Assembly (NCBI GenBank): GCA_964598245.1
Contig: CAZRAX010000003.1
Span: 1 to 33,731, forward strand
Origin: an uncultured Candidatus Saccharibacteria bacterium
Lineage (GTDB): Bacteria; Patescibacteriota; Minisyncoccia; Phycocordibacterales; JAACPR01
DNA length: 33,731 nucleotides
Reading direction: 5' to 3'
Position 1 is the stretch's first letter, and each line of letters opens with the position of its first letter. The notes beneath the pieces were generated by a model. It did not search any database. It was not told where the DNA came from and worked only from the letters and a program-made list of their open reading frames with translations. Positions 4,829 through 29,971 of this stretch are shown here, piece by piece. The translations under genes and the position numbers were made by a program.

Positions 4829-4888
4829 ACTATTTAAAACTAGAAAAGTTGACAAAGAACTTAAAAATTTGGTAATTTTTTTTAAAAT

Positions 4889-4897
4889 TGTTAAAAT
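4889..4897 (+). promoter_or_regulatory. Extended -10 element (TGTTAAAAT) 8 nt before xfp ATG 4906
   Basis: Motif and spacing seen directly. Confidence 0.55.
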
Positions 4898-4905
4898 ATT
4901 ACTAT

Positions 4906-7254
4906 ATGAATGAAATAGAGAACCTTAAAAAATATTTTAGAGCTGCTAATTATTTAAGTGCCGCTCAAATTTTCTTACAAGATAATTTTTTATTAGAAGA
5001 GCCACTAAAACCAGATCACATCAAGAAAAGATTACTTGGTCATTGGGGTACTTGTCCTGGAATTAACTTTGTTTACACTTTTTTGAACAAAATTGTTAAA
5101 GATCACGACGCCAGCATTATTTATGTTGTTGGTCCGGGGCACGGATATCCTGGTGTTCAATCAAATTTATTTTTGGAAGGGACTTTGGGAGAATATTATC
5201 CACAAGCAACTTTGGATAAAAATGGTATTGCCTACATTTCGCAACAATTTAGTTGGCCCTATGGTTTCCCAAGTCATTCTAGTCCACATACACCGGGAGT
5301 TATTTTAGAAGGGGGCGAACTTGGTTATGCTTTGTCTACTTCGTATGGTGCTGTTTTAGATAATCCAGATTTGATAGTTGCTTGTCTTATTGGTGATGGT
5401 GAAGCAGAAACTGGCCCAACCGCTACAGCTTGGCATGCTAATAAATTTATTAATCCAGAAACTGATGGAGCAGTTTTACCAATTCTTCATTTGAATGGTT
5501 ATAAAATTTCTGGACCAACTATTTTTGGGCGAATGGATGATGAAGAGTTAAGAAAACTTTTTGAAGGCTATGGGTATAATCCACATTTTGTAGATGCTGA
5601 AGAAGACGGTGATAAAGGTGATCCATTTGTTCAAATGAATATAACTATAGAAAATGCTTATAAAGAAATCAGATTGGTACAAGAAAAAGCTAAAAATGGT
5701 GAAGAAATTGATAAACCAAAATGGCCAATGATCATTTTGAGAACACCAAAAGGTTGGACTGGAATTAAAGAAGTTGCTGGTAAAAAAGTTGAGGGAAATC
5801 ATTACTCTCATCAGGTTGTTACCAAGGACGCTAGAACCAAAGACGAAGAACTTAAGGCTTTGGAGAATTGGTTTAGGTCTTATAAATTTGAAGAACTTTT
5901 TGATAAAGATTCAGGTTTTATACAAGAAATTTTAGATTCTATTCCCGAAGGGGATAAAAGAATTGGTAAAAACAAGCATGCTTTTGGTGGACCACAAGTT
6001 TATAAAGAGCTTAAATTACCAAACCCTCGTGATTTTGAAGAAGATTGTTCAAAACCAGGAAGTCAGGTTTCAAGCTCAATGCGAAGAGCTGGAGAATATT
6101 TAAATCAGGTTATGGCAAAAAATGATAATTTTAGATTTTTCTCACCAGATGAAACTTATTCAAACAAATTAGATAAAATGTTTGAAACAACCAAAAGAGC
6201 TTTTCAGTGGCCATTGAAAGATTGGGATGAAGATTTAGCAAAAAAAGGAAAGGTTATTGAAATGTTGTCAGAACACACACTACAAGGAATGGCCCAAGGT
6301 TATATTTTAACCGGGAGACATGGAATCTTTGCTTCGTACGAGGCTTTTATTCAGATTGTTGTTAGTATGGCCGATCAATATGCTAAATTTTTGAAACAAG
6401 CAAAAGAGGTTGGGTGGCGTGGTCAAATTCCATCATTTAATTATATTTTAACTTCTTCTGGTTGGAGACAAGATCATAATGGTTTCTCTCATCAAAATCC
6501 TGGATTTATTGATAATATGCTTCAAAGACAGGGAGATTTTATAAATATTTATTTACCAGCAGACGGTAGCTCTACTTTGGCTGTTTTAGACAAGTGTATG
6601 AAATCTAGTTATGGTGTTAATGTTATTGTTGCTGGGAAACAAACAGAACCAAGGTGGATTAATGTAGACCAAGCCCAAGAACAACTAGAAGATGGTCTTG
6701 GAATTTGGAAATTTGCCAGTGATGATGACCCGGATATTGTTTTTTCAGGTGTAGGTGATTATGTAACTAAAGAATCACTTGCTGGTCTAAGTTTATTGAA
6801 AAAAGAATTACCAGAAATTAAAGTTCGATTTGTTAATATTGTAACTATTTCTCAGTCTGGATTTGGATGTGGAGGCAATGTTTTATCTAGAGAAGATTTT
6901 GAAAAATACTTTACTTCGGATAAACCTGTGATTATAAATTACCATGGTTATCCACAAACAATCAAACAAATATTGTTTGATTATTGTGAAAATCCTTCAA
7001 GATTTGAAATTAATGGATATGTTGAAAATGGTTCAACAACAACGCCATTTGATATGCAAGTTAGAAATCATACCAGTCGATTTCAGCTTGTCCAAGATGC
7101 CTGCAAGATGTTAATGAATAGTGGGAAAATTGATCAAAATAAATCTGCCGAAATTATAAAAAAATATGATCAAAAGATTTCTGAACATGTCGAATACATT
7201 AAAGAAAATGGTGTTGATATGGAGGAAATTGAAAACTGGAAATGGGATAATTAA
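4906..7254 (+). CDS. xfp: Xylulose-5-P/fructose-6-P phosphoketolase
   Basis: LLGHWGTCPG, GPGHG, EGGELGY, ThDP motif GDGEAETG...N, FSPDETYSN, LSEH, QDHNGFSHQ. ATG 4906 preferred over TTG 4888. Confidence 0.96.
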   Translation: MNEIENLKKYFRAANYLSAAQIFLQDNFLLEEPLKPDHIKKRLLGHWGTCPGINFVYTFLNKIVKDHDASIIYVVGPGHGYPGVQSNLFLEGTLGEYYPQATLDKNGIAYISQQFSWPYGFPSHSSPHTPGVILEGGELGYALSTSYGAVLDNPDLIVACLIGDGEAETGPTATAWHANKFINPETDGAVLPILHLNGYKISGPTIFGRMDDEELRKLFEGYGYNPHFVDAEEDGDKGDPFVQMNITIENAYKEIRLVQEKAKNGEEIDKPKWPMIILRTPKGWTGIKEVAGKKVEGNHYSHQVVTKDARTKDEELKALENWFRSYKFEELFDKDSGFIQEILDSIPEGDKRIGKNKHAFGGPQVYKELKLPNPRDFEEDCSKPGSQVSSSMRRAGEYLNQVMAKNDNFRFFSPDETYSNKLDKMFETTKRAFQWPLKDWDEDLAKKGKVIEMLSEHTLQGMAQGYILTGRHGIFASYEAFIQIVVSMADQYAKFLKQAKEVGWRGQIPSFNYILTSSGWRQDHNGFSHQNPGFIDNMLQRQGDFINIYLPADGSSTLAVLDKCMKSSYGVNVIVAGKQTEPRWINVDQAQEQLEDGLGIWKFASDDDPDIVFSGVGDYVTKESLAGLSLLKKELPEIKVRFVNIVTISQSGFGCGGNVLSREDFEKYFTSDKPVIINYHGYPQTIKQILFDYCENPSRFEINGYVENGSTTTPFDMQVRNHTSRFQLVQDACKMLMNSGKIDQNKSAEIIKKYDQKISEHVEYIKENGVDMEEIENWKWDN

Positions 7255-7257
7255 TTT

Positions 7258-8424
7258 ATGTTTAATTTAATTGTTAACAATGGAAGTGCTTCAAGAAAAT
7301 ATGCCTTGTATCGTGGCAAGGAGCCGCTCTACTGTGTTCATTATGAAATAGTAATCAATGAATTTTTAAAAACTAAAAAAGATTCTAAAAAAGAAACTGA
7401 AGAGAAAATCGATTCAGAGATTTTTAACGATGCTTTAGGTGATTTCATCAATGAATTGACTAAGAATAATATAATAAAGACTGTAGATGATATTAATAAA
7501 ATTGCTATAAGAATTGTTGCTCCTGGGGTTTTTTTCCAACAACATCATATTGTTGATGAAAAATTTTTAGAAATGTTAGATGATAAAAAACATTTATCAC
7601 CACTTCATATTGATCCAGTTCAAAGAGAGATTTCTGATTTAATGGACAAAATTCCAAATGTCCCAATTTATGCAGTTTCTGATAGTGTTTTTTATAAAGA
7701 TAAACCACAATGCTCAAGTATTTATGCTTATCCAAAAGAAGTTACAGAAAAACTAGAATTATACCGTTACGGGTATCATGGTATTTCTGTTTCCTCTGTT
7801 GTTAAAAAAGTTGAAAAACAACAAAAACTTCCTGAAAAAATGATAATTTGTCATTTGGGAGGCGGATCTAGTATAACGGCAATCAAAAACGGTAAACCTA
7901 TTGATAATACAATGGGGTACTCACCACTAGAAGGAATTCCGATGGCAACCAGAATTGGTAATGTTGATCCGAATTCTTTATTTGCAATTATGGAAGAATA
8001 CGATTATGAAATACCAGAATTACAAAATTTTTTGTATAAAGAATGTGGGTTCAAGGGAATTAGTAATTTGTCTGGTGATACAAGAGCAGTTTTAAAAGAA
8101 GCCCAACTTGGTAATAAAGACGCCAGTTTGGCTCTTGAATATTATGCTTATGAAATTAAAAAAATAATTGGTGGTTACCGAACAATTTTGGGCGGATTAG
8201 ATACTATTATTTTTACTGGTACTATTGGTAATAGATCTGCAGATATTAGAAAAAGAATTTGTCTAGGGCTTGAAGAAACAGGTATTATTTTAGATGATGC
8301 TAACAACAAAATAATGGTTAATTCTGAAGGTAAAATAAGTCTGGACAGTTCAGATACAGAAATTTTAACTATTGAAACAAATGAAAATGGGGAAATGAAT
8401 GAAATTTTAGAATCTATTTCTTGA
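7258..8424 (+). CDS. ackA: Acetate/propionate kinase
   Basis: NNGSAS-KY, PLH, RYGYHG, HLGGGSS, TMGYSPLEG, FTGTIG, TNE; 3 nt downstream of xfp. Confidence 0.92.
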   Translation: MFNLIVNNGSASRKYALYRGKEPLYCVHYEIVINEFLKTKKDSKKETEEKIDSEIFNDALGDFINELTKNNIIKTVDDINKIAIRIVAPGVFFQQHHIVDEKFLEMLDDKKHLSPLHIDPVQREISDLMDKIPNVPIYAVSDSVFYKDKPQCSSIYAYPKEVTEKLELYRYGYHGISVSSVVKKVEKQQKLPEKMIICHLGGGSSITAIKNGKPIDNTMGYSPLEGIPMATRIGNVDPNSLFAIMEEYDYEIPELQNFLYKECGFKGISNLSGDTRAVLKEAQLGNKDASLALEYYAYEIKKIIGGYRTILGGLDTIIFTGTIGNRSADIRKRICLGLEETGIILDDANNKIMVNSEGKISLDSSDTEILTIETNENGEMNEILESIS

Positions 8425-9427: not shown

Positions 9428-10183
9428 TTATTTCAAAATTATTAAATTAGTTTTTGCTTTATATTTTTGATACTCAGGGTTATCTTTGAATTTTTCATTA
9501 TATTTTTTCTCAAGTAATGGAACACCAGAAACAAACATTAAAATAAAAATGATATAAATTGGACTTATAAGAGCAATTAGAGTCAGTAAATCAGTCTTGT
9601 TAACAATAGTAAACAAATAAATACCAACCCAGACTAAAATTTCTCCAAAATAATTAGGATGTCTTGATCTATTCCATAGCCCAACATTTGTCCAGTGCTC
9701 TTTATTTTCTGGCTTACTTTTGAAGACAAATTTTTGATAGTCAGCAACTGTTTCAATTAATAATCCAATGAACCAGATAGATAATCCTAAAATATGTAAA
9801 TTTGAAAATTCTAGATTGGGAATTGAGAAATAATTAATAGAAGCAAATAGAATGATCCACACACTTAAACCTTGTAGTAGCCAAAATTTTATAAAACGAG
9901 TAAAAGATTCTCTTATTCCATCAAAGCGCCTATCTCTTTTTGTTTTATTAATTCTAATAAACAAATAAACTCCAAGCCTAATTGACCAGATCAAGATCAT
10001 TAAAAGCAAGAGAAGATGAACTATATCTTGGCTTGAATTCCAATAAAGAAAAAATGCTAAAACAAAAAAAGTTAAAGAATAAGAAAGGTCTGTTAATTTG
10101 TCAGTTTTTAAAAAATAAGCTGGTACAAAAACTAACAGATTAAACCCAATTGAAAATATTAAACTTGTTATTATTAAATCCAT
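9428..10183 (-). CDS. DUF1295 membrane protein (steroid 5-alpha-reductase-like fold)
   Basis: DKLTDLSY, WSIRLG, DRRFD, ETVADYQK, GLWNRSRHPNYFGE, SGVPLLE. Confidence 0.9.
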   Translation of the reverse strand: MDLIITSLIFSIGFNLLVFVPAYFLKTDKLTDLSYSLTFFVLAFFLYWNSSQDIVHLLLLLMILIWSIRLGVYLFIRINKTKRDRRFDGIRESFTRFIKFWLLQGLSVWIILFASINYFSIPNLEFSNLHILGLSIWFIGLLIETVADYQKFVFKSKPENKEHWTNVGLWNRSRHPNYFGEILVWVGIYLFTIVNKTDLLTLIALISPIYIIFILMFVSGVPLLEKKYNEKFKDNPEYQKYKAKTNLIILK

Positions 10184-10259
10184 AATTTAGCTAGATTTTA
10201 GCATATAAATATTGTTTTTTAAAGATAATTATATTACAATTACGTGTAGTTATTAAAAA

Positions 10260-12170
10260 ATGAAAAAGTATAAAATCTATTTTTTTGATGTTGATGGCAC
10301 TCTTGCAAAGAGCAAGGGGATTATTTCACAAGAAATTGCTGAATTATTATCTGAATTATCTCAAAATAATAAAATAGCGATCATATCTGGTGAAACGTTT
10401 GACCAGATTATAAAGCAAGTTATTAATGAACTCCCTGGTAATGCAGTTATCAAGAATTTTATTTTATTACCTACCTCTGGGGCAGCTCTATATATTTGTA
10501 AAAATAATGATTGGCAAGAGATTTATAAAAATACCATTCCAGAATCACGAGTCGTTGATATAGAAAAAAAGATTTACCAATCTTTCAAAAAACATAAAAT
10601 TTCTATCCCTAAAAAAAATTATGGCCCAAGATTAGAGTATCGCGGGTCCCAGATTACATTCTCAGTTCTTGGCCAAGATGCTCCATTTGAAATAAAAAGT
10701 AAATGGGATCCTGATCATAAAAAAAGAAAAAAAATTGTTGATACCCTAGAACATCAAATTCCAAATCTAGATATTAAAATTGGTGGAACTAATTCCATTG
10801 ATATTACCTTAAAAGGAATCGATAAATCTTATGGAATAATTGAATTAACAAATTATTTAAAGGTATCACCAAAAGATTGTGTTTTTATTGGAGATGCTAT
10901 TTTTGTAGGCGGTAATGATTTTGAAGTTTTTGAAACTGGTATTAAAACTATTCCTACTTCTGGTCCTGATGAATCATCTGATATTTTAAGAGCTTTGATT
11001 AAAAATAGTGAATATCAAAAAAGTTTTATTGGAATTATAAAAAGATTTTTGAAAAAAGTGGGTGTTTTTCTAAGAAAATTTTTCTTGATTGATATTTTAT
11101 TTTTCAAGGTAAAAAAAATAGAATTAGAAGATGATGAATTATCTTCACCATATTTGACTCGTTCAAGTAAAAATCCAGTTTTATCTCCAACAAGTTATTC
11201 TTGGGAAGATGAGGGAGTTTTTAATCCAGCTGCTATTTACTTGGGCGGAAGAGTTCATCTTTTGTATCGTGCAATTGGTTCCAATGGAGTTTCAACTATT
11301 GGTTATGCCTCAAGTAAAGATGGGATTCATTTTGACGAAAGACTACCGTACCCTATCTACTATCCCAAATCTGATTTTGAATTAGATAGTAGTGAAAAAG
11401 TTGAGAAAAAATTTAATCCCAATAAATATAGTTCGGGAGGTAGCTGGTCTGGTTGTGAAGATCCAAAAATTTGTCAAATTGGAGATAGAATTTTCTTAAC
11501 CTATGTCGCATTTTCTGGTTGGGATTCTATTAGAATAGCCATGAGTTCTATAACTGTTGATGACTTCTTGAATAAAAGATGGCGGTGGACTATTCCGATT
11601 TTATGTACCAAAAAAGGAGTTATTTCTAAAAGTGGGGGGTTGTTTCCAGAAAAAGTTAATGGTAAGTATGTTTTTTTCCAAAGAATTTTTCCAAATATTT
11701 TAATTGATTATCTTGATGATCTTCATTTTAAAAATAGCAAATTTCCTGAAGGCGAACATGAAATACCACCACAAAAAGAAGGTTGGGATAGTAGAAAAAT
11801 TAGTTTTGGTGCTACACCAATTAAAACCAAATATGGTTGGCTAGTTGTTACTCATGGTGTGGATGATAAAAATGACCATCAATATCATATTGGAGTGATG
11901 CTTCTTGATTTAGATAATCCAGAAAAAATAATTTATCGTTCAAATCAACCAATTTTATCACCAGAATTATGGTATGAAAATGATTGGAAACCCGGAGTTG
12001 TTTATCCATGTGGAGCTGTTAATAAAGATGGAACACTTTTGATTTATTATGGTGGAGGAGATAAATATGTTTGTGTTGCTTCGGCACCATTTGAAGATTT
12101 TTTGGAATCTTTATTAAGAGGAGAAAAACCAAAATTAAAAAAAGACCGTTTAAAATTTAAAAAGCGATAA
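10260..12170 (+). CDS. Fusion: HAD-IIB (eukaryotic-type) phosphomannomutase-like domain + GH130 beta-mannoside phosphorylase-like domain
   Basis: aa 1-~250: FDVDGTL, EYRGSQITFS, GGTNSID, DKSYG, FIGDAIFVGGND. aa 298-636: NPVLSP, GVFNPAA, LLYRA, GCEDPK, LFPEK, VVYPCG, IYYGGGD. Confidence 0.88.
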   Translation: MKKYKIYFFDVDGTLAKSKGIISQEIAELLSELSQNNKIAIISGETFDQIIKQVINELPGNAVIKNFILLPTSGAALYICKNNDWQEIYKNTIPESRVVDIEKKIYQSFKKHKISIPKKNYGPRLEYRGSQITFSVLGQDAPFEIKSKWDPDHKKRKKIVDTLEHQIPNLDIKIGGTNSIDITLKGIDKSYGIIELTNYLKVSPKDCVFIGDAIFVGGNDFEVFETGIKTIPTSGPDESSDILRALIKNSEYQKSFIGIIKRFLKKVGVFLRKFFLIDILFFKVKKIELEDDELSSPYLTRSSKNPVLSPTSYSWEDEGVFNPAAIYLGGRVHLLYRAIGSNGVSTIGYASSKDGIHFDERLPYPIYYPKSDFELDSSEKVEKKFNPNKYSSGGSWSGCEDPKICQIGDRIFLTYVAFSGWDSIRIAMSSITVDDFLNKRWRWTIPILCTKKGVISKSGGLFPEKVNGKYVFFQRIFPNILIDYLDDLHFKNSKFPEGEHEIPPQKEGWDSRKISFGATPIKTKYGWLVVTHGVDDKNDHQYHIGVMLLDLDNPEKIIYRSNQPILSPELWYENDWKPGVVYPCGAVNKDGTLLIYYGGGDKYVCVASAPFEDFLESLLRGEKPKLKKDRLKFKKR

Positions 12171-12181
12171 TATAAAAAAAT

Positions 12182-14089
12182 ATGTTTAATGTTAATCAAA
12201 GTAAAAACAATCCTTTACTTCATCCTTACAAACGAAATAATTGGGAAGAAGTTTCTGCCTGTAATGGGTGCCCAATAAAATATCGAAATAAAATATATCT
12301 TTTATATCGAGCCATTGCTAATCCCGATCAAGTTAAGTCTCCAAAGTTGTTTGAATCAACTATTGGAATTGCTAAACAAAAAGGAAAGAATAAGTTTAAT
12401 GATAGAAAACAATTCATCATTCCGGAAAATGATTGGGAATATTACGGTTGTGAAGATCCTCGAATTACAAAAATTGATAAAAAATTCTATACTTTTTATA
12501 CTGCTCTATCAAGTGATAATTTAGGTCCTGATTCTATCAAAGTAGCTGTTGCTATTAGTGATGATTTAAAAAAAGTTAAAGAAAAACACTTAGTTACACC
12601 TTTTAATGCCAAAGCCATGTCACTTTTTCCAGAAAAAATTAATGGCAAATATACTGTAATTTTAACTGCTAATACTGATCAGCCACCTGCTAAAATTGCT
12701 ATTGCTCAATTTAATGAAATAAAAGATCTTTGGAATCATAAAAAATGGATGAAATGGTATGAAAATTTAGATAAAAATAGTATTAATTTAAATAGAAGTG
12801 AAAATGATTTAACGGAGGTTGGTGCACCACCAGTTAAAACCAAAGATGGTTGGTTATTGATTTATTCTCATATTCAAAATTATTTTTCTGAAGGGGAAAG
12901 AATTTTTGGTATAGAGGCTGTTTTATTAGATTTAAAAAATCCTAAAAAAATTATTGGTAGAACTAGATTCCCAATTATTATTGCTGATCAAATTTATACT
13001 AAATATGGTTTTGTCTCGGATGTTTCTTTTCCAACTGGGGCAATTATTAATGGTAAAAAATTAGATATTTATTATGGTGCTGCTGATACAACAACTTGTA
13101 TGGCAAGTTTAAATCTTGATTTGTTACTAAGAGAACTTAAAGAAGAAACAAAGGGGAATCTTTTTATTCGAGGCTCTAAAAATCCAATTTTAAAACCACA
13201 GAAGAAAAATGATTGGGAAAATAAAAATGTTTTTAATCCTGCAGCTATTGATATTAATAAAAAAATTAGGATTCTATATCGAGCACAGTCTGACAATGGA
13301 ACTTCTGTCGTTGGTTATGCCGAAAGTAAGGATGGACTAAATATTGATTACCGCCACCCCAAACCGTGTTATTATCCAAGACTTGATTTTGAACAAAAAA
13401 AAGCTGGACCAAATTCTTTTTCCGGTTGTGAAGATCCGAGGTTATCTATGATTGATGATAGAATTTATATGTGTTACACGGCTTATAATGGTATAGAATC
13501 ACCCAAGATTGCTATTTCTGACATTGCTAAAAAGGACTTGGACAAAAGAGATTTTAATTGGTCAGAGCCAGTTGTTATTTCACCAAGTGGTTACGATGAT
13601 AAAGATGCTTGTCTGTTACCAAAAAAATTAAAAAAAGGATATTTTTTAATTCATCGAATCGACTCTCATGTTACAGGTGATTATGTTAATGATTTAAATT
13701 TTACCAAAAATGAAATAGATACATCAATGGAAATATTAGAACCAAGAAAAGGTATGTGGGATGGTTTGAAGGTTGGATTATCTAGCACTCCACATTTGAC
13801 TAAATACGGATGGTTAATGTTTTATCATGGTGTATCTAAAGACAAATACTACCGTCTTGGTGCTGCACTTTTAGACAAAGATGATCCGACAATAGTTTTA
13901 GGGAGGTCAGCATTACCAATATTTGAACCAGAAGAATGGTATGAAAAAGAGGGCGATGTTCCCAATGTCGTTTTCCCTTGCGGATCTGTTATTAGAGGAA
14001 ACAGGGTTCTAATTTATTATGGTGGTGCCGATAGGTATGTTGGTGTTGCAGAAGCAAAACTGGATCAATTAATCAAAGGTCTTTTATAA
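12182..14089 (+). CDS. Tandem GH130::GH130 glycoside phosphorylase/hydrolase
   Basis: Two complete five-bladed-propeller repeats (about 12182-13141 and 13160-14089), each with NP, LYRA, GCEDPR, VxFP and YYG(A/G)AD motifs. Confidence 0.9.
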   Translation: MFNVNQSKNNPLLHPYKRNNWEEVSACNGCPIKYRNKIYLLYRAIANPDQVKSPKLFESTIGIAKQKGKNKFNDRKQFIIPENDWEYYGCEDPRITKIDKKFYTFYTALSSDNLGPDSIKVAVAISDDLKKVKEKHLVTPFNAKAMSLFPEKINGKYTVILTANTDQPPAKIAIAQFNEIKDLWNHKKWMKWYENLDKNSINLNRSENDLTEVGAPPVKTKDGWLLIYSHIQNYFSEGERIFGIEAVLLDLKNPKKIIGRTRFPIIIADQIYTKYGFVSDVSFPTGAIINGKKLDIYYGAADTTTCMASLNLDLLLRELKEETKGNLFIRGSKNPILKPQKKNDWENKNVFNPAAIDINKKIRILYRAQSDNGTSVVGYAESKDGLNIDYRHPKPCYYPRLDFEQKKAGPNSFSGCEDPRLSMIDDRIYMCYTAYNGIESPKIAISDIAKKDLDKRDFNWSEPVVISPSGYDDKDACLLPKKLKKGYFLIHRIDSHVTGDYVNDLNFTKNEIDTSMEILEPRKGMWDGLKVGLSSTPHLTKYGWLMFYHGVSKDKYYRLGAALLDKDDPTIVLGRSALPIFEPEEWYEKEGDVPNVVFPCGSVIRGNRVLIYYGGADRYVGVAEAKLDQLIKGLL

Positions 14090-14093
14090 AAAC

Positions 14094-14987
14094 TTAATCA
14101 AATAAATCAACTATGTATTTATCAATTTCTCTTTGTGATAAATCGTAGAAATGTTTATTATCATCACGTAGATCATCTGCTAATTTTTCTCCAACGAATC
14201 TCCAATGCCAAGGTTCGAATTGATAGTATTGATTATTTTCTGGATAAGATAGTGTAAAACCATATTTATGAGCATTATCTAATAACCATTTGTATTCTTG
14301 TGTTTGGGCAAATCCAGAATATGTATTAGCAACTTGTGAATTTGTGAAATCAACAGTTGTTCCTAATTGATGTTCAGAATATCCTTGGTCAGCAGAGAAT
14401 TGATTAGCACCAGAACCATAAGTAACTGTGTAGGCACCTTTTAATTGAGCCTGTTCTCCAAAAGATCGAAAAGCAGAGATAATTTTTAAGTCCAAGTCGT
14501 CGTCTTCTGCTTCTTCTAGCAAATCTTTTAAATATGGCCAAACTTCAGAATGAATTTCGTACTTTCTATTTTGATCCCATGTATATTTACTAGAAATTAC
14601 TTTCAAATCTGTCGGTACATAATGTTCATTTAAGAAAAATACTTTTGAATATTTTTGAAGTAATTCTGGGTCAGTCTTTGTGATTTTTTCTAATTCGTCA
14701 ACATTATCATTAACTTTATCAAATTGTCTTTCTAGGTCTTCTGATTTTTCTCTGGCTTCTTTCAGCGCTTCTTCAAGAGTTGTATTCTTTTCTTCATTTG
14801 ATAACAAAATAGTTTCAATGTCATTTACTTTTTGGTTTGTCTGGTTAAGCATTTCTTCAAAAGTTATTTTTGTTTGATTTATTTTTTGATTTGCTTGATT
14901 TTGTACATAGAAAATAGCTAACACGATTAAAATAACTATAACTAGACCAGATATTATTAATTGACTTACTTTTGATATTTTTTTCAT
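14094..14987 (-). CDS. M15B (VanY/LdcB-like) D-Ala-D-Ala carboxypeptidase with TM anchor and coiled-coil stalk
   Basis: SAFRS, SEHQLGTTVD (SxHxxGxxxD), AHKYGF, EPWHWRFVG; N-terminal TM and heptad-like E/K-rich region. Confidence 0.9.
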   Translation of the reverse strand: MKKISKVSQLIISGLVIVILIVLAIFYVQNQANQKINQTKITFEEMLNQTNQKVNDIETILLSNEEKNTTLEEALKEAREKSEDLERQFDKVNDNVDELEKITKTDPELLQKYSKVFFLNEHYVPTDLKVISSKYTWDQNRKYEIHSEVWPYLKDLLEEAEDDDLDLKIISAFRSFGEQAQLKGAYTVTYGSGANQFSADQGYSEHQLGTTVDFTNSQVANTYSGFAQTQEYKWLLDNAHKYGFTLSYPENNQYYQFEPWHWRFVGEKLADDLRDDNKHFYDLSQREIDKYIVDLFD

Positions 14988-15056: not shown

Positions 15057-15485
15057 ATGTCAAGAATAGAAGATAAAATAATTATTGGACGTTTAGAAAA
15101 GGTTAATATACCAGAATTAGAACTTCAAAATGTTATTGCAAAAATCGATACTGGGGCTTATCGAGGTTCTATTCACGCTACTGAAATCAGAGAAATTGAA
15201 AAAAAAGGTAAAAAATATGTTGAATTCAAGATTTTAGATTCAGATCATCCTGAATATTCTGATAAGGTTTATTCTTTTTCAAATTATAAAATAAAAAAAT
15301 TCCGTAACAGTGGTACTGATCCTCATGAAAGATATGTTATTTTTGTAACTTTAGAAATTTCTGATCAAAAATTACCAATAGAAATAAGTCTTTCCAATCG
15401 AGCAGATTTAAGATACCCCATATTGATTGGCCGCCGATTTCTTAAGGAAAAATTTCTAATTGATGCTTCTAAAAAAAATATATAG
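15057..15485 (+). CDS. RimK-associated retropepsin-like protease (RimB-like)
   Basis: IIGRLE, AKIDTGA, ISLSNR...YPILIGRRFL; immediately upstream of rimK. Confidence 0.87.
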   Translation: MSRIEDKIIIGRLEKVNIPELELQNVIAKIDTGAYRGSIHATEIREIEKKGKKYVEFKILDSDHPEYSDKVYSFSNYKIKKFRNSGTDPHERYVIFVTLEISDQKLPIEISLSNRADLRYPILIGRRFLKEKFLIDASKKNI

Positions 15486-15551
15486 ATTATAAAATAACTT
15501 GTATAGACTAAATAAAAATTAGATGTATAATATCCTAATTAAAATATTAAT

Positions 15552-16526
15552 ATGAAAATAGCTATTCTTTCTAAAGATCCAGAGCTTTACTCAACCAAAA
15601 GATTGATTGAAGCGGGTCAAAAAAGGGGACATGAGGTTGTTGTAATTGATTATTCTAAATGCCACTTAATAATGGAAAAAGGGAAACCCAGCATTTCAAT
15701 AATGGGAGATAAAATTATTGATGTTGATGTGATTATTCCTAGAATTGGTGCGTCTCTAACTCAGTTTGGAGCTGCGGTTATACAACATTTTGATATAAAA
15801 GGTGTCCCTTCTTTAATTAGTTCCATTGCTTTAATTCGTTCAAGGGATAAATTGCGGTCGCTTCAATTTTTGTCAAAATCAGGAATTGGTATACCAAAAA
15901 CAGTTTTTGCCAGACACCCAAAAGCAGAAAATGTTAAACAATTAATAAATGAAATTGGAGCTACACCTGTTATTTTAAAATTATTAGAAAGCACACATGG
16001 TAATGGAGTCATCAAAGCCGATTCCGTGGCTTCAGCCAAGTCCGCTTTAGAAGCATTTTCTGGTATTAAAGAAGACATTATTATTCAAGAGTTTATTGAA
16101 GAGGCTGGGGGTAAAGATTTACGAGTTTTTGTTGTTGGTGATGAGGTTGTTGGTGCAATGCAGAGATCAGGTGCAGAAGGTGAATTTCGTTCTAATCTTC
16201 ACAAGGGGGGTTCTGCTCAAAAGGTTCAGTTAGATAAAAAAACTGAAACTGCAGCTATTGAATCAGCCAAATTACTTGGTCTAACTGTGGCAGGAGTTGA
16301 TCTTTTGGAATCAGTGAGGGGCCCATTAGTTATCGAGGTTAATTCTTCTCCAGGGTTACAAGGAATTGAAAAAGCCACCGGAATTAATGTTGCCGGTAAA
16401 ATTATTGAAGCTGCAGAGAAAAAATATCAAAGAAAGGCAAAACTAAAAGAAAAAAGTAAAGCCAAAAAGAAAAAGAAAAAAATTAAAAATGATATTAAAA
16501 AACAGATTCAGAGATTAATGCTTTAA
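15552..16526 (+). CDS. rimK: RimK alpha-L-glutamate ligase (ATP-grasp) with Lys-rich C-terminal extension
   Basis: MKIAILS..LYSTKRL, IIPRIGAS, RSRDKLRSLQ, QEFIEEAGGKDLR, FRSNLH, GVDLL, EVNSSPGL. Confidence 0.94.
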   Translation: MKIAILSKDPELYSTKRLIEAGQKRGHEVVVIDYSKCHLIMEKGKPSISIMGDKIIDVDVIIPRIGASLTQFGAAVIQHFDIKGVPSLISSIALIRSRDKLRSLQFLSKSGIGIPKTVFARHPKAENVKQLINEIGATPVILKLLESTHGNGVIKADSVASAKSALEAFSGIKEDIIIQEFIEEAGGKDLRVFVVGDEVVGAMQRSGAEGEFRSNLHKGGSAQKVQLDKKTETAAIESAKLLGLTVAGVDLLESVRGPLVIEVNSSPGLQGIEKATGINVAGKIIEAAEKKYQRKAKLKEKSKAKKKKKKIKNDIKKQIQRLML

Positions 16527-16543
16527 TTCTTGCCACCATTTTG

Positions 16544-16552
16544 TGGTATAAT
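16544..16552 (+). promoter_or_regulatory. Consensus extended -10 TGGTATAAT 7 nt before ATG 16560
   Basis: Motif and spacing seen directly. Confidence 0.65.
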
Positions 16553-16559
16553 ATTAGAG

Positions 16560-18011
16560 ATGAATACTAAAAAAATAGCTATTATATTAGTAATTGTTGT
16601 CATTGTTTTATCTGGTATTTTATTTTTTGTTAAAAAAAATGGTAATTATGAGATTTATACTGTTGAAAGAGAAGATTTTATCGAAAAGGTTGAGTTTTCA
16701 GGTAGAGTTTCCCCATCTCAAGAAATTGATTTGTCATTTGAATTAGTTGGTAAAGCTTCAGGAGTTTATGTTGATACTGGTGATTTTGTTAAGCAAGGTG
16801 ATTTATTAGCTGAACTTAACACATCTGAAATTAATAGCGAAATCAATGAATTCAGATTAAATTTAGAAAAAGAAAAAGCTAAATTATTAGAAGTCTCTGG
16901 TGATTTTATTGGAAAAAATAGATTACAAAATGAATCTGAAACTCTTTTAAATAATCTAAAAAAATCATATGTTGTAAGTGATGATATTGTAAGAAATACA
17001 GTAGACGTGTTTTTTGATAATCCAGATCTTAGGTTTCCAGAATTTTCAAATGCTTTATCTAATTTTTTTCTTAGAAAAGAAATTAATAATCAAAGAAAAG
17101 AAATTGGAAATCTGCTAAAAGAATGGAATGAAATATTGAGTGGTATAAAGCCTCTGAATTTAACCAATAATGATGTAGAATATTCTATTAATAATTTAAA
17201 GCAGGTTGAAAAATTACTGTCTTTAATAAGTTCTGGAGTAGATGATTTTGATTCTAATTCTAATATTAGTCAATCTCAGATTAGTTCTTATATTTCTAGT
17301 ATTAGTAATGCTAGAAATTCAATTGCTAATTTAATAATTGACCTTAATAATGGTTACGATAACTATCGTGACGTTCAGGCAGAATTACCAGTTTTAGAAT
17401 TTTCAGTTGAGAATGCAGAAGCATCAGTTCAAACTTTGGCTGCTAGAAGAGAAAAATATATTCTCAGAGCTCCATTTGATGGAATTATTACAGATAAAGA
17501 TATTGAATTTGGTCAAGTCGTGTCTGCTGGTGAAAGTGTTATTTCAATGATTAGTGATAATTCTTTTGAAATAGAAGGTTTTATACCTGAAATTAATATT
17601 ATTGGTGTAGAAGTTGGTGATATCGCTAATGTTGTATTGGATGCTTTCGGCCCCGAATTTAATTTTGAAGCAATTGTTTCTCAAGTTGATCCAAGAGAAA
17701 CAATCAAGGATGGTATTACAACTTATCGAACAATTGTTGATTTTATTGATTTTAATCCAGAAATTAGATCTGGAATGACGACCGATGTTAAAATTCAAAA
17801 AGATTTTATTGAAAACCAGATTGTTATTCCAAAGTATTTGGTTTTAGAAGATGATCAGGGATCCTATGTCTATTTAAGTTCTGACGACGGCAAGAAAAAA
17901 AATCAACAAGAATTAAAAAAATATTTGAAATTAGGGAAAACAGATGGTAGTGGTGGGGTTATTGTCAGCGAAGGTCTTAAAGAAGGTGATAAAATTATTA
18001 TTCAAAAATAA
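16560..18011 (+). CDS. Membrane fusion protein / efflux adaptor subunit (MacA/HlyD-like)
   Basis: N-terminal TM; lipoyl halves VYVDTGDFVKQGDLLAEL and LRAPFDGII...GQVV; C-terminal EGLKEGDKI. ATG 16560 preferred over TTG 16530. Confidence 0.88.
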   Translation: MNTKKIAIILVIVVIVLSGILFFVKKNGNYEIYTVEREDFIEKVEFSGRVSPSQEIDLSFELVGKASGVYVDTGDFVKQGDLLAELNTSEINSEINEFRLNLEKEKAKLLEVSGDFIGKNRLQNESETLLNNLKKSYVVSDDIVRNTVDVFFDNPDLRFPEFSNALSNFFLRKEINNQRKEIGNLLKEWNEILSGIKPLNLTNNDVEYSINNLKQVEKLLSLISSGVDDFDSNSNISQSQISSYISSISNARNSIANLIIDLNNGYDNYRDVQAELPVLEFSVENAEASVQTLAARREKYILRAPFDGIITDKDIEFGQVVSAGESVISMISDNSFEIEGFIPEINIIGVEVGDIANVVLDAFGPEFNFEAIVSQVDPRETIKDGITTYRTIVDFIDFNPEIRSGMTTDVKIQKDFIENQIVIPKYLVLEDDQGSYVYLSSDDGKKKNQQELKKYLKLGKTDGSGGVIVSEGLKEGDKIIIQK

Positions 18012-18014
18012 ATT

Positions 18015-19271
18015 ATGATTGATTTAAAACCAATAAAAGTTGGTTGGTTTCTGGGATATCGGCAGCTAAAAAGGGCTTCACTTTGGTCTACTGTTTTGAT
18101 AATAACAATTATGGTTTTAACTTTTTTGAATCTGGTTGTTATTTCTGGAATTTTAATCGGTCTAATTGAGGGGGCTTCAGCAGCAGTTAAAGATCACTAT
18201 ATTGGAGACATTATTATCTCTAAACTACCGGAGAATTCATTTCTCGAAAATACACCAAGTATTATTTCAACAATTGAAAATACACCACAAATTGAATCTT
18301 ATACTGCTAGGTATTTAACTTCTGGAACAATTGAATCTAATTATAAAAATAGAACTAATTTTGATGAAAATCCCGAAAAGGTCTCAACTGTTTTTGCTGG
18401 TATTGATCCGGATCACGAGCATCAAGTAACTGATATTAAAAATCTTTTAGTAGAGGGAGATTTTTTAGAGAGAACAGACTTTGATAAAATTGTTTTAGGT
18501 GCTTTTCTTTTAGAAAAATATTTACAAATTGATTCCCCAGGGTTTTTGGTTTTACCAGATGTTGAAATTGGATCAAAAGTTAGGGTTACAATTAATGGGA
18601 ATAGTCGAGAAATGATAGTCAAAGGAATTGTAAAGAGCAAAACTGATGAAATTGATCGAAGAGCATTTATGATTGATTCTCAATTAAAATCAATGATGGG
18701 AAGAGATGACCAAAATGTTGGTGAAATTTCTATGAGAATTTCTCCAAATGAAGATCCAGATTTTGTTAAATCAATTTTGCTTAAAAATAATATTGACCGA
18801 TTTGCGAAAGTCCAAACATTTGAAGAGGGTAGACCAAAATTTTTAGATGATATAACTAATACTTTTAATTTGTTGGGGACCATTATCAGCTCTATTGGCC
18901 TGGCTGTTGCCGCCATTACTGTTTTTATAGTTATTTTTATTAATGCTATTACTCGCAGAAAGTATATCGGAATTATGAAAGCAATAGGCGTTACGGGTAA
19001 AACTCTTGAATTGTCTTATGTTTTTCAATCATTAGTATATGCAATTATTGGTTCAACTCTTGGTTTAATTATTGTTTATGCTGTCTTGATTCCATACATT
19101 GATCAAAACCCAATTAATTTTCCTTTTAGTGATGGAATTTTGGTTGCCCCACTTTTCTCTACAACAATTAGGGTTAGTATTTTAATTTTAGTGACTGCTT
19201 TTGCTGGATATCTCCCAGCTAGAATTATTGTTAAGAAAAATACACTTGATTCAATTTTAGGTAGAAATTAA
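18015..19271 (+). CDS. ABC transporter permease, MacB/FtsX/LolE family
   Basis: TM1 + large extracytoplasmic domain + three C-terminal TMs; RRKYIGIMKAIG; GYLPAR. Confidence 0.9.
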   Translation: MIDLKPIKVGWFLGYRQLKRASLWSTVLIITIMVLTFLNLVVISGILIGLIEGASAAVKDHYIGDIIISKLPENSFLENTPSIISTIENTPQIESYTARYLTSGTIESNYKNRTNFDENPEKVSTVFAGIDPDHEHQVTDIKNLLVEGDFLERTDFDKIVLGAFLLEKYLQIDSPGFLVLPDVEIGSKVRVTINGNSREMIVKGIVKSKTDEIDRRAFMIDSQLKSMMGRDDQNVGEISMRISPNEDPDFVKSILLKNNIDRFAKVQTFEEGRPKFLDDITNTFNLLGTIISSIGLAVAAITVFIVIFINAITRRKYIGIMKAIGVTGKTLELSYVFQSLVYAIIGSTLGLIIVYAVLIPYIDQNPINFPFSDGILVAPLFSTTIRVSILILVTAFAGYLPARIIVKKNTLDSILGRN

Positions 19272-19273
19272 TT

Positions 19274-19963
19274 ATGGAATATATTATTAATGCCAAAGGA
19301 ATAAAGAAAACATTTTATAGCGGTAAAATTGAAACACCGGTTTTAAAAGGAATTGATTTAAAAGTTAAAAAAGGAGAGTTTGTTTCGATTATGGGGAGAT
19401 CGGGTGCTGGAAAAAGTACCCTAATGTATCAGCTAAGCTTACTTGATGAACCAACATCTGGAGAAATTAATGTTTATGGTACTGACATTTTAAAACTAAC
19501 TAATAGAGAAAAAACTTTATTTCGGTTAGCCCATTTAGGGTATGTTTTTCAGGATTATGCTTTGGTGCCAGAATTAACCGCAACCGAAAATGTTTCACTC
19601 CCACTTTTAATGAGGGACATTTCTCTAAGAGAAGCCTTAAAAAAATCAGAAGAAGTTTTACATCGTCTTGGTTTAGAAAGGCAGGTTCACAATCTGCCGA
19701 GTCAATTATCCGGAGGTGAGCAACAAAGAGTTTCAGTTGCAAGAGCAATCATTAATGAACCAAAAATTTTATTCAGTGATGAGCCAACTGCAAATCTAGA
19801 CGCAGAATCTGCCAGGGTTGTTATTGATTTATTAAAAAATCTGAATAAAAGTGGCCAAACAATTGTCATGGTTACTCATGAAGAAGAGTATGGACAAGAA
19901 ACAGATAGAATAATCCGCCTATCAGATGGTGTTATTGAAAGGGAAGATATCATTAACCGCTAA
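19274..19963 (+). CDS. ABC transporter ATP-binding subunit, LolD/MacB-like
   Basis: Walker A GRSGAGKS, GYVFQ, LSGGEQQR, DEPTANLD, VTH. Confidence 0.95.
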   Translation: MEYIINAKGIKKTFYSGKIETPVLKGIDLKVKKGEFVSIMGRSGAGKSTLMYQLSLLDEPTSGEINVYGTDILKLTNREKTLFRLAHLGYVFQDYALVPELTATENVSLPLLMRDISLREALKKSEEVLHRLGLERQVHNLPSQLSGGEQQRVSVARAIINEPKILFSDEPTANLDAESARVVIDLLKNLNKSGQTIVMVTHEEEYGQETDRIIRLSDGVIEREDIINR

Positions 19964-28452: not shown

Positions 28453-29967
28453 GTGCGAAAAATACTTAAATTTCTTAAAAAACGAAAATATATAGTTATA
28501 ATCACAGCATTAATTGTGGTTTATTTACTATTTTCGGTCTTTTTTTCAAAAGACAAAGGTGCTGAGATTCAAATAGAAGATAACTTAAAAAAGATTGAAG
28601 CATCATCGGTTAAAGATATTATTAGTGAAAACTCTAATTTAAATTTAGTTGGCCGTGTTGAATCTGAATCTGAATCAAAAATAAAAACTGAAAGCCAAGG
28701 TGAAATATCGGTTGTTTATAAAAAATTAGGTGACCAAGTTTTTGCGGGTGAAATAATTGCTGAGATAGAAAATTCAGTACAAAGAGCTGAAGTTTTAAAT
28801 GCTGAAGCTTCATTAGATATTGCAAAAGCTAATCTTGAAAAACTAAAAGATAGTTCTGGAGATAATGTTGTTTTAATAAAAAGCTCTATTAGACAATCTT
28901 TCACTACTACTGATGATGCGATAAGAAATAGAGTTGATCAGTTATTTGAAAATCCAGATGGTAGGTTTCCAAATTTACAAATTAACTTTGGGGATTATTT
29001 TAGAAAAAAAGATATAGAAGATTTAAAATATGAAATAGAATTAATTTTAGAAGACTGGAAAGAAGAAATAAATAATATAAGTAATTTAAATAATGTTTCA
29101 GAAATAGAAAAAATAATTAATTCTTCTCAAGATAGAATTAGAATTGTTGAAGGATTTTTAGATGAATTAGCTTTTGCTCTGAGTTTAACTAATCCAAATA
29201 CAAATGTTACTCAAAATGATATTGATAAATATAAAAATGATATATCAGTCGCAAGAAATTCTATTTCTAATTCACTTTCTTCTTTAATTAATTCATTCAA
29301 TAATTTAAATTCCTCTGTAGATTTTGGTGATAAAGGACAAGATATTATTATTTCAGAAGCTAATGTTGAACAGGCAAGAGCGAGACTTTTGATTACACAA
29401 TCTAATTTAGAAAAAACAATTATTAGATCTCCAATCACTGGAGAAATTAATTCGATTGATATCAAAAAAGGATCTTTTGTATCTTCTTTTCAAGATGTTG
29501 TAGAAGTAGTTGGGGGTAATAATGTAGTAATAAAAAGCTTTGTAACGGAAAATGAAATAAATAAGTTGAAGATCGGAACAGAAGTTATTATAGATAAAAA
29601 ATATAAAGGTAAAATATCTAGAATTGCACCTTCAGTAAATTCTGAAACACAAAAAATAGAAATCATAATAATCCCAACAGAAAGTGTTAAATTAAAAAAT
29701 GGTCAGTCGATAAATGTATCTATTGTTTTAGATGATAAAGATTTTACTGAGGATTTAATAATTATTCCAATTAAATCAATTAGAATAAATACTGATGGAA
29801 ATTTTGTATTGTCAGTTAATTCTAGTAATGAAATATATTTTAAACCAGTGAAAATAGGAGAAATAATAGGCGATTCTATAATTATTGAAGAAGGTCTTGA
29901 AAGTGAAGATATTATAATAATTGATGCTAGGGGTCTAAAAGAGGGTCAAGTCGTAAATCTTAATTAA
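28453..29967 (+). CDS. RND efflux membrane fusion (adaptor) protein
   Basis: GTG start; TM; KKLGDQVFAGEIIAEI and IRSPITGEI...KKGSFV lipoyl halves; EGL...LKEGQVV; 4 nt upstream of the RND permease. Confidence 0.88.
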   Translation: MRKILKFLKKRKYIVIITALIVVYLLFSVFFSKDKGAEIQIEDNLKKIEASSVKDIISENSNLNLVGRVESESESKIKTESQGEISVVYKKLGDQVFAGEIIAEIENSVQRAEVLNAEASLDIAKANLEKLKDSSGDNVVLIKSSIRQSFTTTDDAIRNRVDQLFENPDGRFPNLQINFGDYFRKKDIEDLKYEIELILEDWKEEINNISNLNNVSEIEKIINSSQDRIRIVEGFLDELAFALSLTNPNTNVTQNDIDKYKNDISVARNSISNSLSSLINSFNNLNSSVDFGDKGQDIIISEANVEQARARLLITQSNLEKTIIRSPITGEINSIDIKKGSFVSSFQDVVEVVGGNNVVIKSFVTENEINKLKIGTEVIIDKKYKGKISRIAPSVNSETQKIEIIIIPTESVKLKNGQSINVSIVLDDKDFTEDLIIIPIKSIRINTDGNFVLSVNSSNEIYFKPVKIGEIIGDSIIIEEGLESEDIIIIDARGLKEGQVVNLN

Positions 29968-29971
29968 AAAC

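Follow-up and report, generated by a model that had tools for sequence, protein, structure and literature searches.

The described systems closest to the locus studied in this work, a pair of genes at positions 10260..14089 of a 33,731-nucleotide contig from an uncultured Candidatus Saccharibacteria bacterium, are the GH130 mannoside phosphorylases and the phosphohexomutases with an HAD-IIB fold. In gut and rumen anaerobes, the GH130 phosphorylase is followed by a phosphomannomutase (PMM), normally an α-D-phosphohexomutase, and then by a mannose-6-phosphate isomerase (PMI). This order is presented as the textbook fate of GH130-derived α-mannose 1-phosphate (Man-1-P) in the passages of PMC4264767 concerned with it. 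The GH130 enzymes of X-514 (GH130_6; PDB entries 9fj8 and 7fip) are cytoplasmic, single-domain proteins, encoded as several paralogues side by side and clustered with an ABC transporter, a GH5 enzyme and a Man-1-P guanylyltransferase (passages of PMC4264767). On the mutase side, PgmH of Lactococcus lactis (PDB entry 4bnd) and the eukaryotic PMM1 and PMM2 are stand-alone proteins. To our knowledge, this HAD-type family is known biochemically only from that one Lactococcus glucose enzyme and the eukaryotic PMMs.

The locus appears to combine elements of both groups. Gene 1 (10260..12170, plus strand) encodes a 636-aa protein composed of an HAD-IIB mutase domain, a linker and a GH130 domain (A). 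After a spacer of 11 nt (12171..12181), gene 2 (12182..14089, plus strand) encodes a 635-aa protein carrying two further GH130 domains in tandem (B and C). We read the pair as a cytoplasmic module that interconverts β-1,2-mannosides and mannose phosphates, with a probability of about 0.6; the enzyme activities, any channelling between them and the direction of flux are what we infer from sequence comparison and gene context. Compared with the X-514 enzymes, two GH130 domains stand in tandem, the third is fused to a mutase, one phosphate site is lost, and neither a transporter nor a guanylyltransferase accompanies the genes. The order of steps proposed is that of the gut and rumen route, and four relatives hold the three enzyme types in one locus; here, however, the first two steps are fused, the α-D-phosphohexomutase family was not found, and the third step was not found in this genome. 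The fusion is a new and rare architecture of two consecutive known enzymes, set in a conserved, uncharacterised module of Patescibacteria.

The anatomy given by the original prediction, two co-oriented genes 11 nt apart with one HAD-IIB and three GH130 domains, was borne out by the open reading frames and by Pfam and NCBIfam matches. Gene 1 matches the Pfam models Hydrolase_3 (aa 8-225, E 1.5e-16), PMM (aa 27-246, E 1.2e-15) and Glyco_hydro_130 (aa 318-616, E 9.8e-45); across both databases the HAD-IIB part extends over aa 4-250 and the GH130 part over aa about 299-616. Gene 2 holds two Glyco_hydro_130 stretches (E 3.7e-90). A genome-wide six-frame search returned exactly three GH130 matches, at 11211-12107, 12353-13132 and 13202-14077. 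The motifs quoted at the outset (FDVDGT, GDxxxxGGND and GCEDP) all occur in the translations, as FFDVDGT at aa 8-14, as GDAIFVGGND at aa 211-220 and as one GCEDP per GH130 domain. The size of the E-values, together with the conservation of both full-length architectures in other assemblies, excludes chance. Gene 1 starts nine residues ahead of HAD motif I, and the GH130 alignment of gene 2 begins at residue 1; as the catalytic domains start no more than 10 residues into either protein, a leader peptide is improbable.

The HAD-IIB domain (aa 1-257; 10260..11030, plus strand) is assigned to the PgmH/PMM type of phosphohexomutase on the basis of PDB, NCBIfam and Pfam matches and of conserved residues. 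Its best PDB match is 4bnd, the L. lactis α-phosphoglucomutase (132.8 bits, E 1.6e-37), aligned almost end to end (query 4-249 against chain 3-250), whereas human PMM2 scores about 62 bits. The PDB search returned 29 distinct sequences at E <= 0.01, of which the top 17, with E-values from 1.6e-37 to 1.2e-10, are two α-phosphoglucomutase chains and 15 PMMs (about 62 down to 45 bits); the remaining 12 have E-values of at least 0.0046. The description of the domain as a eukaryotic-type PMM thus holds for the mutase class, to which its 17 best PDB relatives belong, but not for the type, since the nearest relative is the Lactococcus PgmH (133 against 62 bits). By these comparisons, the domain is a member of the mutase class and closest to PgmH. 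It shares with PgmH, PMM1 and PMM2 the HAD-IIB fold, motifs I-IV and basic cap residues, and differs from them in forming the N-terminal part of a longer protein. The Pfam PMM match covers profile positions 2-218 of 221. Residues D10, D12, G13, T14, S43, G44, K185, G211, D212, G218, N219 and D220, which make up HAD motifs I-IV, are invariant in all 12 fused proteins, and AlphaFold2 models this part with a predicted local distance difference test (pLDDT) score of 80-95. The cap residues R128 and K146 are likewise invariant (12/12) and align with Arg residues of PMM2; by comparison with the PMMs, they would be the distal-phosphate binders of the cap.

A sugar-phosphate phosphatase would be the obvious other identity for an HAD-IIB domain, which would turn the fusion into a route for net mannoside hydrolysis or for removal of Man-1-P or mannose 6-phosphate (Man-6-P). 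Most of the HAD-IIB subfamily consists of phosphatases, the Hydrolase_3 match is no weaker than that to PMM (61.4 against 58.4 bits), and mammalian PMM1 is also a bisphosphatase. We nevertheless consider a phosphatase very unlikely. HAD-IIB is the sole NCBIfam model passed (72.3 bits against a cut-off of 41.8), every NCBIfam phosphatase equivalog, the Cof type included, scores far under its cut-off, and the significant solved relatives are all mutases. The invariance of R128 and K146 and their alignment with PMM2 point the same way. The partners found fused to this family (PMI, GT35 and a nucleotidyltransferase) suit a mutase and not a phosphatase, and phosphorolysis followed by dephosphorylation would waste the energy that the phosphorylase had saved.

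For the GH130 domains, criteria separating phosphorylases from hydrolases and one linkage from another were taken from Table 2 of PMC7660257 and from the relevant parts of PMC4599007 and PMC12814180. A Glu beside the catalytic Asp marks β-1,2 and β-1,3 enzymes, where β-1,4 enzymes have Tyr, and a Lys marks β-1,2 enzymes (PMC7660257, in part). Residue positions were assigned through HMMER alignments to Teth514_1789 (7fip), Teth514_1788 (9fj8) and Lin0857, together with 27 domains of nine genomes aligned by MAFFT. The tandem homologue set comprised 115 of the 117 proteins P0124-P0240, two having been dropped for a length outside 600-670 aa. All three domains find their best solved matches among the X-514 enzymes.

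Domain A (11154..12167, plus strand) and domain C (aa 323-635 of gene 2; 13148..14086, plus strand) carry a complete β-1,2-mannoside phosphorylase signature, C being of the canonical β-1,2-oligomannan phosphorylase type. Domain A is closest to the β-1,2-mannobiose phosphorylase 7fip (172.8 bits), and R337, E400, D401, K457, R475, R512/K513, H532, Y542 and D601 are invariant in 12/12 fused proteins. Domain C is closest to 9fj8, Teth514_1788 (168.3 bits); E417, D418, K474, R492, H549, Y557 and D617 are present in 115/115 tandem homologues, R367 in 114, and position 530 is Lys in 109 and Arg in 6. Both domains share the D/R/H/R/E/K/D signature of the X-514 enzymes, including the phosphate-binding Arg/His pair (R168/H231), which is R475/H532 in A (12/12) and R492/H549 in C (115/115). 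The catalytic Asp (D of GCEDP; D104 of Uhgb_MP, D142 of BT3780) is kept in A (12/12) and in B and C (115/115). All three domains also bear the +1 subsite signature of β-1,2 enzymes (R59, Glu beside the Asp, K199 and D304), with exceptions only at R43 and R367, each conserved in 114/115. NCBIfam GH130 equivalog scores were 213 and 398 bits against a cut-off of 450.

The presence of GCEDP does not suffice to identify a phosphorylase, and the case in point is domain B (aa 1-322 of gene 2; 12182..13147, plus strand). Aligned to 7fip and 9fj8, B keeps E91, D92 and K144 in 115/115 homologues, but the position equivalent to R168 is Ser in 66, Thr in 44 and Ala in 5, and never Arg. It lacks the phosphate-site Lys/Arg, has F242 in place of Tyr in 111/115, and retains a His (H230, 106/115) one residue off the H231 position. 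Acidic residues unique to this type, D166 and E212 (115/115) and E245 (109/115), accompany the loss. Since the Arg is missing throughout and the acidic residues are invariant, domain B is probably not a phosphorylase; only A and C look like such enzymes, and B most likely hydrolyses or transfers β-1,2-mannosyl residues.

Two described groups bear on the role of domain B. In the GH130_3 β-1,2-mannosidases BT3780 and BACOVA_03624, as in B, the Asp, the adjacent Glu and the Lys are kept, and basic phosphate binders are replaced by carboxylates, an exchange that converts GH130 phosphorylases to hydrolases (PMC4599007, in part). Domain B shows no special similarity to this subfamily: the NCBIfam equivalog NF058598 (BT3780, GH130_3) scores 181.5 bits against a cut-off of 550, with its best stretch in domain C (aa 340-623) and not in B. 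Domain B also mostly keeps the His (106/115) and has no apparent signal peptide; its D166, E212 and E245 would be no more than candidate counterparts of the base carboxylates Glu227/Glu268 of BT3780. The second group comprises the Leishmania mannogen enzymes (GT108, MTPs), which belong to the same five-bladed propeller fold family and act on β-1,2-mannan (PMC12814180, in part). Some members of the MTP paralogue sets are strict transferases, and these lack the phosphate-binding Arg (PMC12814180, in part). The MTPs are eukaryotic, belong to another CAZy family and use GDP-mannose as donor, and their link to the GH130 set is by analogy only.

The same components recur unfused in other genomes. 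We compared 46 homologous mutase places by tblastn, using eight query domains; for 43 of them the sequence searched extended about 8 kb to either side, or less where a contig ended. At eight places, GH130 A followed by the tandem B-C adjoins the mutase, without exception arranged as A, B, C (G405, G195, G284, G434, G447, G438, G420 and G437), and GH130 domains of the same type are 39-76% identical across genomes as against 24-45% between types. The domain A of these unfused loci also lacks the phosphate-binding Arg (Ser, Asn or Gly) in 5/8, while the unfused A-type proteins P0015, P0018, P0019 and P0022 keep it. A PF01050 cupin-type PMI (113-127 aa, above cut-off) lies inside the locus, beside the mutase or GH130 A, in G437, G434, G420 and G284 (4/9 module genomes). 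The coupling of phosphorolysis to a mutase step that the original prediction drew from a single fusion is thereby strengthened: the same mutase accompanies the same three GH130 domains in eight other genomes, with the cupin PMI inside the locus in four.

At four further places (G439, G426, G417 and G429), a GT35-like phosphorylase and a GT5 glycogen synthase take the place of the GH130 domains. The G439 locus (L066:4775-9361) encodes an 800-aa HAD::GT35-like fusion followed by the GT5 glycogen synthase, with a cupin-type glucose-6-phosphate isomerase on the other strand; G426, G417 and G429 hold the mutase and the GT35-like phosphorylase unfused. At five of the 46 places, two of them GH130 loci (G195, G284), a cytidylyltransferase-like domain adjoins the mutase or is fused to it, and 31 have no GH130, GT35-like/GT5 or cytidylyltransferase-like neighbour. 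The cytidylyltransferase-like domain occurs with the HAD mutase in L068:6211-7458 (G195), in L079 (G284) and in P0305, and adjoins GH130 A/B-C in G195 and G284; beside a mutase it may mark NDP-hexose formation. Counted across 61 relatives, the GT35-like and GH130 types occur in 6 and 12 genomes and never together, where about 1.2 would be expected (P about 0.25), which is no signal of exclusion.

Fusion partners of the mutase family were surveyed among the best 150 representatives, 17 of which are longer proteins. The partner is a GT35-like phosphorylase in P0256, P0339, P0370 and P0121 (and in L066), a cytidylyltransferase-like domain in P0305 (and in L068), GH130 in P0291, a histidine phosphatase in P0354, an FAD oxidase in P0274 and a VTT domain in P0122, while four of the 17 contain an HAD/PMM domain only. 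In P0310, P0324, P0359 and P0373 (355-383 aa), the PF01050 PMI cupin is itself fused to the HAD mutase, joining two mannose-phosphate steps in one chain. These partners are the strongest evidence that the family is a working, if so far predicted, phosphohexomutase placed beside enzymes that make or use hexose 1-phosphates, and the pattern shows it serving as a putative phosphomannomutase in several lineages. For the present domain, preference for mannose is suggested by context, namely the GH130 fusion and the PMI in the module of 4/9 genomes; the Lactococcus enzyme is named for glucose phosphates, whereas the context here points to mannose phosphates.

A full-length search of 5.8 billion protein clusters, which measures the prevalence that an architecture search was expected to reveal, found 12 HAD::GH130 clusters. 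They include the window's own and come from four sources (lgn, jgi, ena and ncbi), the others being 58-71% identical to it; P0013 is an additional fused copy, itself shortened. Searching longer proteins with the HAD domain gave 13 matches, ten of them in the fused set and the others an HAD::GT35 protein, a VTT::HAD protein and one further protein. In the library of 50%-identity representatives, the fused clade is a single entry, P0005, and a second HAD::GH130 protein, P0291, which is incomplete, with a short linker and only 40% identity, may reflect a separate fusion event. In the species-representative genomes, the long fused form was present in 2/61 relatives (the window's own genome, G000 in our counts, and G405, where the gene pair is conserved with the genes 4 nt apart) and, in a sample of 401 genomes of the phylum, in G000 alone. 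In a tree of 57 HAD domains, built by a quick search with no bootstrap and with the short row L101 left out, the 13 fused domains form one clade with a Shimodaira-Hasegawa-like approximate likelihood-ratio (SH-aLRT) support of 99. Judged on these sequence data, the fusion is real as an architecture, rare, and arose once.

The tandem B-C protein, by comparison, is very common: of 8000 candidates scored, 6461 clusters reach E <= 1e-50, and full-length clusters at >= 50% identity number more than 100. CAZy lists GH130-GH130 proteins, and no combination with HAD is mentioned in the parts of PMC7660257 that list them. The view that no PMM::GH130 fusion had been characterised is upheld, for the listed papers that name both GH130 and phosphomannomutase, by their titles and abstracts and by passages of PMC4264767, none of which describes such a fusion. 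Literature searches joining the Candidate Phyla Radiation with mannoside phosphorylase returned nothing, and one paper naming both GH130 and Patescibacteria lists only two GH130 genes without signal peptides.

Other arrangements of the same domains were seen. P0014 (1110 aa), P0016 (971 aa), P0017 (978 aa) and P0141 (996 aa) match both window proteins, are long enough for three GH130 domains and seem to represent another way in which A, B and C have been fused. In G434 (L102:9166-11049), G437 (L106:3814-5802) and G455:C70, GH130 A ends a 628-663-aa protein whose extra N-terminal ~300 residues have faint GH130 matches only, and these residues may be a degenerate fourth GH130 domain.

Between the mutase and domain A lies a variable linker of basic and hydrophobic character (aa about 258-298, about 45 aa; 11031..11153, plus strand). 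Across the 12 fused proteins it measures 40-90 residues and varies in sequence, but is always rich in aromatic, aliphatic and basic residues, with charges interspersed and a maximum 19-residue Kyte-Doolittle mean of 0.3-2.2. A transmembrane linker was considered for the gene 1 protein and rejected, its maximum 19-residue hydropathy being 1.42 with charges throughout; among the 12 homologues, P0008 (1.96) and P0012 (2.23) lie above the customary limit of ~1.6. The linker resembles the N-terminal leader of the four Arg-keeping unfused A-type proteins named above, and unfused A-type proteins begin with a linker-like segment, a Lys-rich tail or a transmembrane-like helix. By this resemblance, it looks like the retained leader of a formerly downstream gene, and it may form an amphipathic helix that binds a membrane or a polyanion. 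Leaders ahead of unfused GH130 A in L104, L105, L068, L079 and L103 are of two kinds, transmembrane-like in G438 and G420 (19-residue hydropathy 2.1) and otherwise tails of 60-80 residues with an extreme Lys content, which suggests an enzyme tethered to a membrane or polyanion. AlphaFold2, run with a 12-row alignment, gave the fused protein a mean pLDDT of 65 and a predicted TM-score (pTM) of 0.41, with confidence in the HAD half only; the linker scored 26-45, and with much of the GH130 half lay below 50.

In the proposed mechanism, domains A and C would convert β-1,2-manno-oligosaccharides and phosphate to α-Man-1-P, or catalyse the reverse. The fused mutase would then convert Man-1-P to Man-6-P through a hexose-bisphosphate intermediate, and the fusion would bring it next to the enzyme by which its substrate is formed or consumed. 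Domain B, in which sugar-binding and proton-donor residues are kept, would hydrolyse or transfer β-1,2-mannosyl residues. As all of these reactions are reversible, the direction must come from context. We lean slightly towards catabolism over a synthetic or reserve role, and the in-operon PMI of the relatives fits catabolism.

Several observations weigh against this reading of the pair. The assembly to which the window belongs totals 505 kb in 40 contigs and is 93.3% complete as judged by marker genes; it was searched for chosen families, with a protein scan of contigs C8 and C33 only, so that an unconventional isomerase could be missed. In this assembly we found no PMI (types I and II, PF01050, small cupin or Cupin_2) and no glucose-6-phosphate isomerase (PGI; three types) or SIS domain, and no use for Man-6-P. 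Glucose 6-phosphate, in contrast, has a use, through glucose-6-phosphate dehydrogenase (G6PD), 6-phosphogluconate dehydrogenase (6PGD), phosphoketolase and acetate kinase. In the nine module genomes, type I PMI, PGI and cupin PGI were found in 0/9, and PF01050 above cut-off in only 4/9. Among the 401 phylum-sample genomes, GH130 occurs in 56 and the mutase in 34, but both in only 7. The HAD domain's nearest characterised relative bears the name α-phosphoglucomutase, and Nogly et al. (2013) reportedly found it to be strict for glucose 1-phosphate. The HAD tree interleaves GT35-linked and GH130-linked mutases, with no clear mannose or glucose clade. Among the window's genes, none beside the pair encodes a manno-oligosaccharide transporter, and we know of no natural source of β-1,2-mannan for such bacteria. 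Finally, assembled Logan contigs of run X1 end at 11128 and resume at 11131 within the linker, and none bridges the HAD/GH130 junction.

The last observation raises the question of an assembly artefact, in which two genes would have been joined, or a frameshift hidden, at the linker. Runs X1 and X2, which contain the stretch, come from one study labelled as a microbial mat metagenome, and close homologues of gene 2 carry the source names Patescibacteria, Candidatus Paceibacterota or Candidatus Nomurabacteria. Two X1 contigs (share 0.96) cover 10200-12300 at a depth of about 6, the break falling exactly in the linker; X2 (share 0.20) contributes two short pieces and X3 none. The Logan contigs neither confirm nor refute continuity at the junction of this genome. 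The contigs flanking the break agree with the window, with no differing letters or indels on either side, and the same in-frame architecture, its linker comparable in length and character, recurs in the 11 other clusters of the four sources. One fused homologue lies on a 150-kb contig, another in G405, and P0002 is 71% identical across 99% of the length. An artefact is, on this evidence, hardly credible.

The rest of the genome offers a partial view of the routes in and out. As no member of the α-D-phosphohexomutase family was found in the assembly, the fused domain is the only phosphohexomutase seen. NTP_transferase and close homologues of the relatives' GT35, GT5 and cytidylyltransferase-like domain were not found there either; with no other sugar-1-phosphate enzyme among those sought, the fused GH130 is the only visible partner of the mutase. 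Transaldolase was likewise not found in the assembly. The claim that the fusion yields a hexose 6-phosphate without spending ATP consequently lacks a visible exit in this genome, since none of PMI, PGI, SIS and transaldolase turned up in it. A PMI is absent from this locus, where relatives keep one, and tblastn of the assembly with the four relatives' small cupins and a weak G405 cupin gave noise or nothing; with 7% of markers missing and 40 contigs, a PMI gene of 120 codons could be unassembled. G6PD and 6PGD are adjacent on C33 (L041:1086-3489), and phosphoketolase (XFP; 4888-7254) and acetate kinase (7258-8424) stand side by side in the window, 2-5 kb upstream of the gene pair. Glucose 6-phosphate, the oxidative pentose-phosphate steps, phosphoketolase and acetate kinase thus form a route to ATP, in what looks like a phosphoketolase-type fermentation fed by glucose 6-phosphate. 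A minus-strand cluster on C8 (L016:1323-5245) encodes a GH1 glycosidase, an EamA-type transporter, a weak GH5/GH42-like protein and the genome's only ROK kinase (C8:1335-2132); it is likely a route from β-glycosides to hexose 6-phosphate. In the nine module genomes, five of them estimated to be 100% complete, ROK occurs in 3, G6PD in 5 and NTP_transferase in 5.

This metabolic setting would also suit a general α-phosphoglucomutase feeding G6PD and phosphoketolase, with the fusion serving co-regulation or with the GH130 switched to a glucoside. Such an enzyme would agree with the best solved relative, with the fusions of the family to GT35 glucan phosphorylases, with the presence of G6PD, 6PGD, phosphoketolase and acetate kinase, and with there being no other phosphohexomutase found. 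We consider it improbable, as no enzyme forming or using glucose 1-phosphate (GT35, GT5 or NTP_transferase) was found in the genome and the -1/+1 subsite residues that mark β-1,2-mannoside enzymes are invariant in domain A. PMI cupins, moreover, are fused to or stand beside the mutase family, and no glucoside-acting GH130 appears in the parts of PMC12814180 and PMC7660257 that describe characterised members.

The more serious alternative concerns direction. The pair may serve an internal β-1,2-mannan reserve in a mannogen-like cycle, in which the ROK kinase would supply Man-6-P, the fused mutase would convert it to Man-1-P, and A and C would polymerise by reverse phosphorolysis (in relatives, possibly from NDP-mannose) and later phosphorolyse the product, with B as a primer-forming transferase or a trimming hydrolase. 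The only complete candidate chain in this genome does run the synthetic way (mannose, ROK kinase, mutase, GH130): each step from mannose through Man-6-P and Man-1-P to a β-mannoside has a candidate gene, while the catabolic exit through PMI has none. The characterised β-1,2 GH130 phosphorylases covered in PMC12814180 all synthesise by reverse phosphorolysis and use GDP-mannose weakly. The cytidylyltransferase-like domain in the G195 and G284 module loci would suit such a role, as would the lack of an adjoining transporter and the reserve-polymer module of sister genomes, in which this mutase stands next to a GT35-like phosphorylase and a GT5 glycogen synthase. The tandem B-C protein is also very widespread in Patescibacteria, where an outside source of β-1,2-mannan is not obvious. 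Against this, neither NTP_transferase nor a close cytidylyltransferase-like copy was found in this genome, a polymer with no entry to central metabolism (no PMI being found) would be of doubtful use, and the in-operon PMI of the relatives suits catabolism equally well. The failure of GT35-like and GH130 types to co-occur in the 61 relatives is no evidence, and no polymer has been observed. We regard a reserve as possible but the less probable reading.

A broader form of the same idea, which we hold still more tentatively, is that many Patescibacteria keep an internal β-1,2-mannan reserve, which would be the bacterial equivalent of the mannogen of Leishmania. Domains A, B (as transferase or trimming hydrolase) and C would build and consume it, and the HAD mutase and a mini-cupin PMI would link it to fructose 6-phosphate. 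Lineages without sugar-nucleotide synthesis, such as this one, would polymerise by reverse phosphorolysis with the mutase fused, and the whole would be an alternative to the module of mutase, GT35 and glycogen synthase. We know of no mannogen-like reserve polymer in bacteria; should an internal β-1,2-mannan prove to be the substrate, bacteria would have a reserve polymer of a new kind, synthesised with no need for nucleotide sugars.

That two consecutive enzymes are fused is direct evidence, at the level of the genome, for their acting jointly, and the fusion would assign the handling of Man-1-P to the HAD-type mutase family. It also suggests that ultra-small bacteria share a conserved mannoside module, so far uncharacterised. 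With thousands of clusters in Patescibacteria, the tandem GH130 protein is consistently given the name phosphorylase by automatic annotation, although one of its halves no longer has the phosphate site. A natural phosphorylase-mutase fusion could also serve enzyme technology as a ready-made part for producing β-1,2-mannosides from hexose 6-phosphates.

The surroundings of the pair in the window (contig C3, about 29% G+C and hence AT-rich) show further features. A DUF1295 gene (9428..10183) and a gene for a VanY-type D-Ala-D-Ala carboxypeptidase (14094..14987), both open reading frames with domain matches, flank the pair; as both are on the minus strand, the two genes form a stand-alone unit. 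A promoter and terminator scan was uninformative at 29% GC, with 28 promoter-like sites against 25.1 expected and two terminator-like sites against 1.9. Despite the VanY gene, G000 has no match to the families of GlmM (PGM_PMM_I), GlmS (SIS) and GlmU (NTP_transferase), and a UDP-GlcNAc route is not apparent. Beyond VanY, a putative ATP-dependent zinc protease domain protein adjoins a RimK-type ATP-grasp ligase (15057-16526). Two efflux-type systems stand in the window of this very small genome, one with an HlyD protein, an FtsX permease and an ABC ATPase (16530-19963) and one with an HlyD-type adaptor and a 1026-aa AcrB/RND transporter (28453-33052).

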